Under the pieces are notes generated by a model. It did no database searches, was not told the origin of the DNA, and saw nothing but the letters and a program-made list of their open reading frames with translations. The position numbers and the translations under genes are program-made. From the NCBI RefSeq assembly GCF_028369095.1, contig NZ_JAQNDN010000024.1, forward strand, positions 217,350 through 281,349: a DNA stretch of 64,000 nucleotides, in the 5' to 3' direction. Positions 36,450-37,005 of this stretch are shown in pieces. This DNA comes from Nannocystis radixulma (lineage in GTDB: Bacteria; Myxococcota_A; Polyangia; Nannocystales; Nannocystaceae). Numbering within the stretch: position 1 is the stretch's first letter; each line of letters opens with the position of its first letter.

Positions 36450-36537
36450 GGGGATGCGGTCCTCCGCCCAGTCCTCGCGGATGGACCCTCCTGCGTCGGG
36501 CCCATCTCGCTGCGGATGGGCGGAGGACCGCATCCCC
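36450..36537. repeat. Perfect 21-bp inverted repeat (GGGGATGCGGTCCTCCGCCCA / TGGGCGGAGGACCGCATCCCC) enclosing a 46-nt loop
   Basis: Direct reading; 21 of 21 complementary positions. Confidence 0.7.
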
Positions 36538-36677
36538 GACCGCGGGCACGGCCCACTCGTGGGTGGCCCGAGCGCCGGTCCTCGGCTTCGATGGCGGCTG
36601 TCTCTTCGCGCAGGTGCATTCCGCCCGAGGGACGGCCGGGGCCGGCCATCCCTCGGACGGACCTCTGGGCGCTGTAT

Positions 36678-37005
36678 CCGGCGCTCGTTGGTGACGCGAC
36701 GATGTGCTGGGCGACGAGCGTGCTGCGATTCCGGCGCTCGCTGGTGACACGACGATGTGCTGGGCGACGAGCGTGCTGCGATTCCGGCGCTCGCTGGTGA
36801 CACGACGATGTGCTGGGCGACGAGCGTGCTGCGATTCCGGCGCTCGCTGGTGACACGACGATGTGCTGGGCGACGAGCGTGCTGCGATTCCGGCGCTCGC
36901 TGGTGACACGACGATGTGCTGGGCGACGAGCGTGCTGCGATTCCGGCGCTCGCTGGTGACGCGACGATGCGCTGGGCGACGATCACCCTGCGATGTTCGG
37001 CGCGG
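36678..37005. repeat. Near-perfect 53-bp tandem repeat, 6 copies plus one partial (unit ccggcgctcgctggtgacacgacgatgtgctgggcgacgagcgtgctgcgatt)
   Basis: Copies start at 36678, 36731, 36784, 36837, 36890 and 36943. The unit is not a multiple of 3, so it is non-coding. The array abuts the stop of 37009..37479. Confidence 0.85.

Follow-up and report, generated by a model that had tools for sequence, protein, structure and literature searches.

A Lineage-Restricted 53-bp Minisatellite and Two Conserved Hairpins Downstream of a CopD-Like Gene in Nannocystis radixulma

What is the repeat-rich DNA that separates a membrane protein gene from a lipoprotein gene in Nannocystis radixulma, how did it arise, and does it act on either of its neighbors? 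The window analyzed here is a stretch of 64,000 nucleotides, and both flanking genes lie on its minus strand: 37009..37479 encodes a 156-aa CopD-like membrane protein (Pfam PF05425 CopD, E 3.5e-6, below the gathering score) with 100% identity to an N. radixulma protein, and 35687..35983, taken from the ORF listing, encodes a 98-aa lipoprotein with the lipobox LMSGC and a GC content of 0.90 at third codon positions. The original prediction described a perfect inverted repeat next to a near-identical tandem array, and offered a variable-number tandem repeat (VNTR), a small RNA or riboregulator, or a binding-site array as candidate roles. On the minus strand, we observed the order CopD-like gene, array, hairpin 2, hairpin 1, a gene relic of ~135 bp, a conserved upstream region, and the lipoprotein gene.

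Structure and Coding Status of the 53-bp Array

The 53-bp minisatellite extends over ~36662..37000, with no strand assigned, as delimited by Tandem Repeats Finder, a unit table, unit parsing, and an nhmmer profile of the unit. Tandem Repeats Finder called positions 36677-36982, with a period of 53, 5.8 copies, 98% matches, and a score of 584. In the in-register unit table, the unit at 36677-36729 carried two mismatches to the consensus, the four interior units (36730-36941) were identical, with no mismatch in any of them, and the unit at 36942-36994 carried six; the predicted range of zero to two mismatches per unit thus held for five of the six units but not for the one at 36942-36994. The array consists of six full units and a truncated last unit adjoining hairpin 2. 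Read on the minus strand, the unit is GCCGGAATCGCAGCACGCTCGTCGCCCAGCACATCGTCGTGTCACCAGCGAGC, the array starts 8 nt past the stop codon of 37009-37479, and its other end abuts hairpin 2. No match to the 53-mer occurred in 100 shuffles of the window, and this result, together with the Tandem Repeats Finder call and the unit table, confirmed the six-copy repeat. Head-to-tail repeats with a unit of ~10-100 bp are classed as minisatellites or VNTRs, and the array, with its period of 53, belongs to this class.

The array did not behave as coding sequence. GC content by codon position was flat in the three ORFs that cross it (~0.70/0.70/0.71), compared with 0.67/0.47/0.99 in the CopD-like gene; these pseudo-ORFs had no Pfam match, and their translations, on either strand, found no relative among 5.8 billion protein clusters. 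The flat codon-position GC and the lack of homologues indicated that the three ORFs are artefacts, in agreement with the original prediction of a non-coding array. In addition, the unit lengths seen in the window and its relatives (53, 52, 42, and 30 nt) break any reading frame. On these grounds (codon-position GC, frame-breaking unit lengths, no homologues, and no Pfam match), we ruled out a coding repeat protein. The tail of one pseudo-ORF, 36259..36909, overlaps a genuine gene relic, that of a methyltransferase on the minus strand (36262-36393).

Searches for further copies returned this single locus. No second copy of the 53-mer or of the hairpins was found within the 64-kb window, and nhmmer profiles of the unit and of the hairpin block, run against 422 kb of Nannocystaceae DNA, detected copies only at the same locus in the window and its relatives. 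The core pattern of the array was absent from 185,579 species-representative genomes (the source genome is not among them), plasmid and phage collections gave no match, and viral contigs scanned for the unit core and hairpin 2 were likewise negative; a plasmid or phage origin was rejected on these searches. A metagenome scan with the hairpin 1 arm recovered 21 loci, all of them single-arm chance matches inside conserved coding genes and none of them a hairpin. With Rfam 15, no family matched the block, and the only matches in the window were two tRNAs; over 35900-37100, a search up to E = 10 returned only chance matches of the miRNA hairpin type, with E values of at least 0.45, and a known RNA family was ruled out on this basis. 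A CRISPR array was excluded by units that are contiguous and homologous along their whole length, with no spacers, and a retron by the lack of a partner gene and the wrong architecture.

Gene Replacement and Array Turnover in One Lineage

The history of the locus could be read from the genes found between the same two neighbors in other Nannocystis genomes. One relative (L031), whose CopD-like protein is 89% identical to that of the window, carries an intact gene for a 240-aa class I SAM-dependent methyltransferase at this position. In tblastn, residues 196-239 of this protein matched the window at 68% identity (E 1e-14), and the match marks a relic at 36259..36393 on the minus strand that retains the last 44 codons (36262-36393) and the stop codon. 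Residues 1-195 matched nothing in the window, even at E = 10, which ruled out that the neighboring block is diverged methyltransferase sequence. That block, of ~615 bp (36394-37008), comprises the array and the two hairpins, and was found only in the window and in four relatives, namely L001 (assembly GCA_020073745), L055 (Nannocystis sp. SCPEA4), and the metagenome contigs L029 and L056, all of them with a CopD-like protein that shares at least 95% identity with that of the window. The intact gene of L031, the surviving relic, and the limitation of the block to close relatives together indicated that, in a single narrow lineage, a decaying gene lost its 5' part to the block. In particular, the ancestral order was CopD-like gene, SAM-methyltransferase gene, and lipoprotein gene, and in the N. 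radixulma lineage the first ~195 methyltransferase codons and the preceding spacer were replaced by ~615 bp of non-coding DNA.

The contents of this slot vary across the genus. Other methyltransferase fragments lie between the two genes in N. pusilla Na p29, strain RBIL2, and N. punicea; a hydrolase gene and an AraC-type regulator gene occupy it in N. exedens; and nothing separates the two genes in N. bainbridge and two metagenomic relatives. Directly downstream of the CopD-like gene, the genus has a hotspot of gene turnover. In N. exedens, the ORFs that replace the methyltransferase (L003, 4618-6521) are alpha/beta-hydrolase-like and AraC-type regulator-like, with functions read from their translations. 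On the other side of the CopD-like gene, a segment of ~2.1 kb (37500-39650) carrying an RCC1-repeat gene (37606-39258, minus strand; RCC1-repeat/DUF4215, Pfam E 8e-57) occurs in the window, L055, and L057 but not in L001 or L056; the DNA on this side is therefore also polymorphic among close relatives.

Among the lineages that bear the block, the DNA of the CopD-like gene is 96-98.5% identical, yet every array is different. The six units of the window, four of them identical, compare with 3.7 diverged units in L029, ~8 units of 53, 42, and 30 nt in L001, 9.3 units of 52-53 nt that include a 106-bp higher-order duplication of the form A-B-A-B in L055, and at least 3.5 units with internal deletions in L056, where the contig ends inside the array. 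Copy number at the same locus therefore varies between close relatives, as in a VNTR, the relatives compared being at or near species level; the proposal of VNTR behavior, for which a comparison of copy number had been suggested, was borne out by these counts against ~6 in the window. In L055, at 3755-3970, two different 53-bp units alternate as A-B-A-B, and both A units are identical. The short-read metagenome contigs stop at the array, L056 190 bp into it and L057 at the CopD-like stop codon, as expected because short-read assemblers break at tandem repeats.

Comparison of the units themselves suggested how this diversity arose. Unit variants are lineage specific (e.g., GCAGCACGCTCG in the window versus GCAGCATGTTCG at the same place in L055), and unit identity was 0.91 within L055 compared with 0.77 between lineages. 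The units at the two ends of an array are similar to those at the ends of arrays in other lineages. This pattern, in which interior units are turned over and edge units are left behind, is the classic signature of slippage and unequal exchange, and the four identical interior units of the window, with diverged edge units that match those of relatives, upheld the earlier reading of near-identical units as recent expansion or homogenization. The best-conserved part of the unit across lineages is its 3' 22 nt (CATCGTCGCGTCACCAGCGAGC), and an array of at least ~3.5 units has been kept in all five lineages; this retention and the conserved CATCGTCGCGTCACCAGCGAGC leave room for a function of the array.

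Conserved Hairpins and the Lipoprotein Upstream Region

Two hairpins lie between the array and the gene relic. Hairpin 1 (36428..36559, minus strand) has perfect 21-bp arms, a loop of 46 nt that contains a sub-hairpin, and imperfect outer arms. Its inner arms, 36450-36470 and 36517-36537, are complementary at 21 of 21 positions, and the complementarity reaches arms of 43 nt at 81% when the outer part (36428-36559) is included; the inverted repeat had no match in any shuffle of the window, and the predicted 21-bp hairpin with its 46-nt loop was thus verified. Hairpin 2 (36620..36661, minus strand), which sits between the array and hairpin 1 and had been overlooked, has a GC-rich 19-bp stem, a 4-nt loop, and no U-tract. 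The spacer between the hairpins (36560..36619, no strand assigned) is less conserved than either of them, with 7 differences in 54 nt between the window and L001.

Both hairpins fold better as minus-strand RNA. The predicted free energies were -43.5 kcal/mol on the minus strand versus -35.3 kcal/mol on the plus strand for hairpin 2, -96.2 versus -87.0 kcal/mol for hairpin 1, and -115.3 versus -94.8 kcal/mol for hairpin 1 in its extended form (36425-36562), a gain in stability of 8-20 kcal/mol for the minus strand. The three imperfect positions in the stems, two of them in hairpin 2, are all non-Watson-Crick G.U pairs in minus-strand RNA and A.C mismatches in plus-strand RNA, an asymmetry that rests on three positions only and has a chance of ~1 in 8.

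The hairpins are conserved where the surrounding non-coding DNA is not. The stem-loop of hairpin 2 is identical in L001, L029, and L055, and the core of hairpin 1 (36450-36537) shows no difference from L055 and three from L001. Between the window and L001, 3 of 130 positions differed in the hairpin cores compared with 25 of 131 in adjacent non-coding DNA (Fisher p = 1e-5); between the window and L055, the corresponding counts were 0 of 130 and 29 of 270 (Fisher p = 1e-5). When synonymous sites (third codon positions) in the CopD-like gene serve as the reference, the hairpins show a modest excess of conservation (p = 0.02 and p = 0.13). These results indicated that the hairpins are under constraint, although repair between the two arms of a palindrome can also produce such uniformity, as an alternative to constraint.

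As candidate terminators, both hairpins are GC-rich stem-loops at the 3' end of a gene, but neither stem is directly followed by a U-tract: the sequence after hairpin 2 is AUGCACCUGCG, and non-U sequence follows hairpin 1. A scan for terminators with a U-tract listed neither of them, though it found the one at 35601-35578. The latter, a canonical intrinsic terminator with a 10-bp stem followed by ATTTTT (35578..35601, minus strand), lies after the lipoprotein gene, so U-tract terminators are in use in this genome. Elsewhere in the window, 16-bp GC-rich palindromes that are near perfect and lack a U-tract were also observed at gene 3' ends, as a pair between convergent genes at 10332-10423 and just past the gene 58579-59388 at 58525-58558. 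Hairpins of this kind at gene ends seem to be common in this genome.

The lipoprotein gene appears to have its own promoter. Its orthologues are present in all Nannocystis loci (tblastn), and a sequence conserved across all of these loci, GGTTACCTGATTGCA (36003..36017, minus strand), lies outside the repeat and ~20 nt ahead of the start codon, with GG and GC in a sigma-54-like -24/-12 spacing; from the sigma-54 consensus, we take it to be a putative promoter. The DNA upstream of GGTTACCTGATTGCA (36040-36260) is the best-conserved non-coding stretch at this locus, with 98% identity between the window and L001 over 36100-36199, and contains a TGCGAAATCAGCGCA dyad and three ATGCGAT motifs. With this conservation, dyad, and set of motifs, the region may be a candidate enhancer for a sigma-54 activator.

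Possible Function of the Block and Its Known Counterparts

Taken together, these data identify more at the locus than the original prediction had described, namely the second hairpin, the methyltransferase pseudogene context, the restriction to a narrow lineage, and the contrast between conserved hairpins and a fast-evolving array; its proposals of a small RNA or riboregulator and of a binding-site array remained speculation, with no Rfam match, no promoter-like site, and no conserved RNA stem within the unit. The VNTR and non-coding status of the array is well supported. We consider it probable that the array is a minisatellite without demonstrated function, and that the hairpins lie at the 3' end of the CopD-like mRNA, where they may terminate or stabilize it. 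Units of the array would be gained, lost, and homogenized, presumably via replication slippage, unequal recombination, or gene conversion between units, which would make even very close relatives differ in copy number and unit sequence and would leave old, diverged units at the edges; a very recent amplification of one unit would account for the four identical interior ones in the window. The array itself, which presumably lacks any sequence-specific function, would simply be tolerated in the 3' region of the CopD-like gene. For the hairpins, the most likely site of action is the minus-strand transcript, in which they would form structures at the 3' end of the CopD-like mRNA; they could stop transcription or block 3'-to-5' exonucleases without a U-tract, and might also shield the separately promoted lipoprotein gene from read-through. 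A role as terminators has against it the absence of a U-tract from both hairpins, while the neighboring lipoprotein gene has a canonical terminator.

We weighed this reading against several others. The block might instead be what is left after a small non-autonomous mobile element (MITE, REPIN, or ERIC-like palindromic) jumped into the methyltransferase gene; the array would have grown from internal sequence of this element, and the hairpins would be its terminal or internal palindromes, with no host function. The lineage specificity of the block, the replacement of gene sequence by unrelated DNA, the 132-nt imperfect palindrome of hairpin 1, a size typical of such elements, and the gains and losses on both sides of the CopD-like gene would fit this origin, but we regard it as unlikely: neither the window nor 422 kb of related loci yielded a second copy, scans of viral contigs with the unit core and hairpin 2 and of representative genomes with the array core were negative, the metagenome matches to the hairpin 1 arm were due to chance, no target-site duplication is visible at the ends of the palindromes, no spurious ORFs over similar elements occurred among the 5.8 billion protein clusters, and the hairpins are better conserved than expected of junk DNA. 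An assembly artefact, in which the array would be a collapsed or over-expanded repeat, is very unlikely indeed. Short-read assemblies do break at the array, but an array also occupies this site in three independent assemblies of relatives with long contigs and in one metagenome contig, and the N. radixulma assembly was built with HGAP from PacBio data (PMC10435759). The array, at only ~340 bp, is far below PacBio read length, which, together with the same-site arrays of relatives, argues against an artefact.

Two other readings would give the array a function. The array and hairpins could form a long structured 3' UTR or a small RNA derived from it, whose repeated modules would act as a sponge with many binding sites for a protein or RNA; in one such arrangement, a 14-nt loop with a GGA would be closed by a GCGAGCG/CGCUCGU stem at each unit junction. 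At the unit junctions of the minus strand (36683-37000), GCGAGCG and CGCUCGU can indeed pair, and the 14-nt GGA loop resembles a CsrA-type target. Such a role would suit an array that starts directly past the stop codon, that is followed by two stable hairpins with their best folds on that strand, and that keeps several units in all five lineages, with GGA in most units and, as read from the sequence, a stem that survives C-to-U changes in L055 as G.U pairs. Nevertheless, this reading is improbable: in about half of the diverged units, the invariant A of the stem faces a G or C, so that the stem is not conserved and a conserved intra-unit RNA stem is unsupported among them; units carry patternless deletions of 11-23 nt and 1-nt indels; no promoter-like site was found; no Rfam family matched even at E = 10; and such fast turnover is unusual for a functional RNA. 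Still less probable is an array of DNA-binding sites, either a distal enhancer for the activator of the sigma-54 promoter of the lipoprotein gene or sites for a nucleoid protein. The unit's 3' 22 nt are its most conserved part across all lineages, the lipoprotein gene has the conserved -24/-12-spaced sequence and a highly conserved upstream region, and each unit and, in the opposite orientation, that upstream region contain one copy of the 9-mer TGCGATTCC. However, the shared 9-mer is within chance expectation (estimated at ~0.4 expected) and is not conserved in other species, and we judged it a chance match. Other Nannocystis species have the same lipoprotein upstream region without the array, and a distance of 650-1000 bp, which takes in two hairpins and a pseudogene, separates the array from the promoter. 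Helical phasing of the units (53 as ~5 turns and 42 as 4 turns) was dropped as an idea, since units of 34, 30, and 52 nt are also seen and the unit lengths as a whole (53, 52, 42, 34, and 30 nt) hold no consistent helical phase. A bolder version of these ideas, to which we assign a low probability between those of the two readings just described, would make the array and hairpins a fast-evolving 3'-UTR RNA module of the CopD-like gene, with one GGA loop per 53-nt unit, hairpins that stabilize the processed RNA, and a sponge for an RNA-binding protein in which copy number tunes the dose, or else would make the 22-nt core a tandem protein-binding site that acts on the sigma-54-type lipoprotein promoter.

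The preferred reading, a minisatellite next to 3'-end hairpins, has counterparts in known systems, of which mycobacterial MIRU-VNTR minisatellites are the closest for the array and REP/ERIC-type 3' palindromes the closest for the hairpins. MIRU-VNTR minisatellites of Mycobacterium tuberculosis are intergenic tandem repeats of 40-100 bp used for strain typing. The array resembles them in its high-GC genome, its ~53-bp head-to-tail units, its intergenic position directly after a gene and on that gene's strand, and its copy number that varies between close strains. MIRUs, in contrast, are dispersed over ~40 loci, often with short ORFs that overlap the flanking genes, whereas the array was found at one locus only in the sequence searched, follows no such ORF logic, and has no sequence similarity to them. 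Like the REP/BIME, ERIC, and REPIN sequences of proteobacteria, the hairpins are stable imperfect palindromes, ~40-130 nt long, at the 3' ends of genes in transcribed intergenic DNA. Those proteobacterial sequences are thought to protect mRNA 3' ends or to terminate weakly, and the same role is proposed here for the two hairpins; the proteobacterial families are multi-copy and dispersed, whereas the two hairpins were confined, in the sequence searched, to a single locus in one narrow lineage. REP and REPIN sequences are further marked by an associated RAYT transposase, and MITEs by terminal inverted repeats with a target-site duplication. Intrinsic (Rho-independent) terminators are likewise GC-rich stem-loops downstream of a gene and on its strand, but the two hairpins differ from them in the missing U-tract, in much longer stems (19 and at least 21 bp), and in their distance of 350-560 nt past the stop codon. 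Type III toxin-antitoxin arrays (ToxI, CptI, and TenpI) also place a short-unit tandem array before a hairpin on one strand, with a repeat unit of ~34-40 nt compared with 53 nt in our array. Such a system was ruled out here, as the downstream ORFs have no Pfam match and no toxin gene is present: no ToxN, AbiQ, CptN, or TenpN-like gene follows the array, and a methyltransferase relic and the lipoprotein gene stand there instead.

The block is thus an ordinary kind of bacterial repeat, and it would raise a new biological question only if transcripts were to show that the array is a functional RNA. Its array explains why short-read assemblies break at this point and, being different in every sampled lineage, provides a ready-made high-resolution typing marker for N. 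radixulma and the SCPEA4 group. For the biology of this 70% GC myxobacterium, the locus offers a small and clean example of concerted evolution inside a bacterial minisatellite, of a decaying gene that was overwritten by non-coding DNA, and of hairpins without a U-tract that are conserved at the 3' end of a gene.
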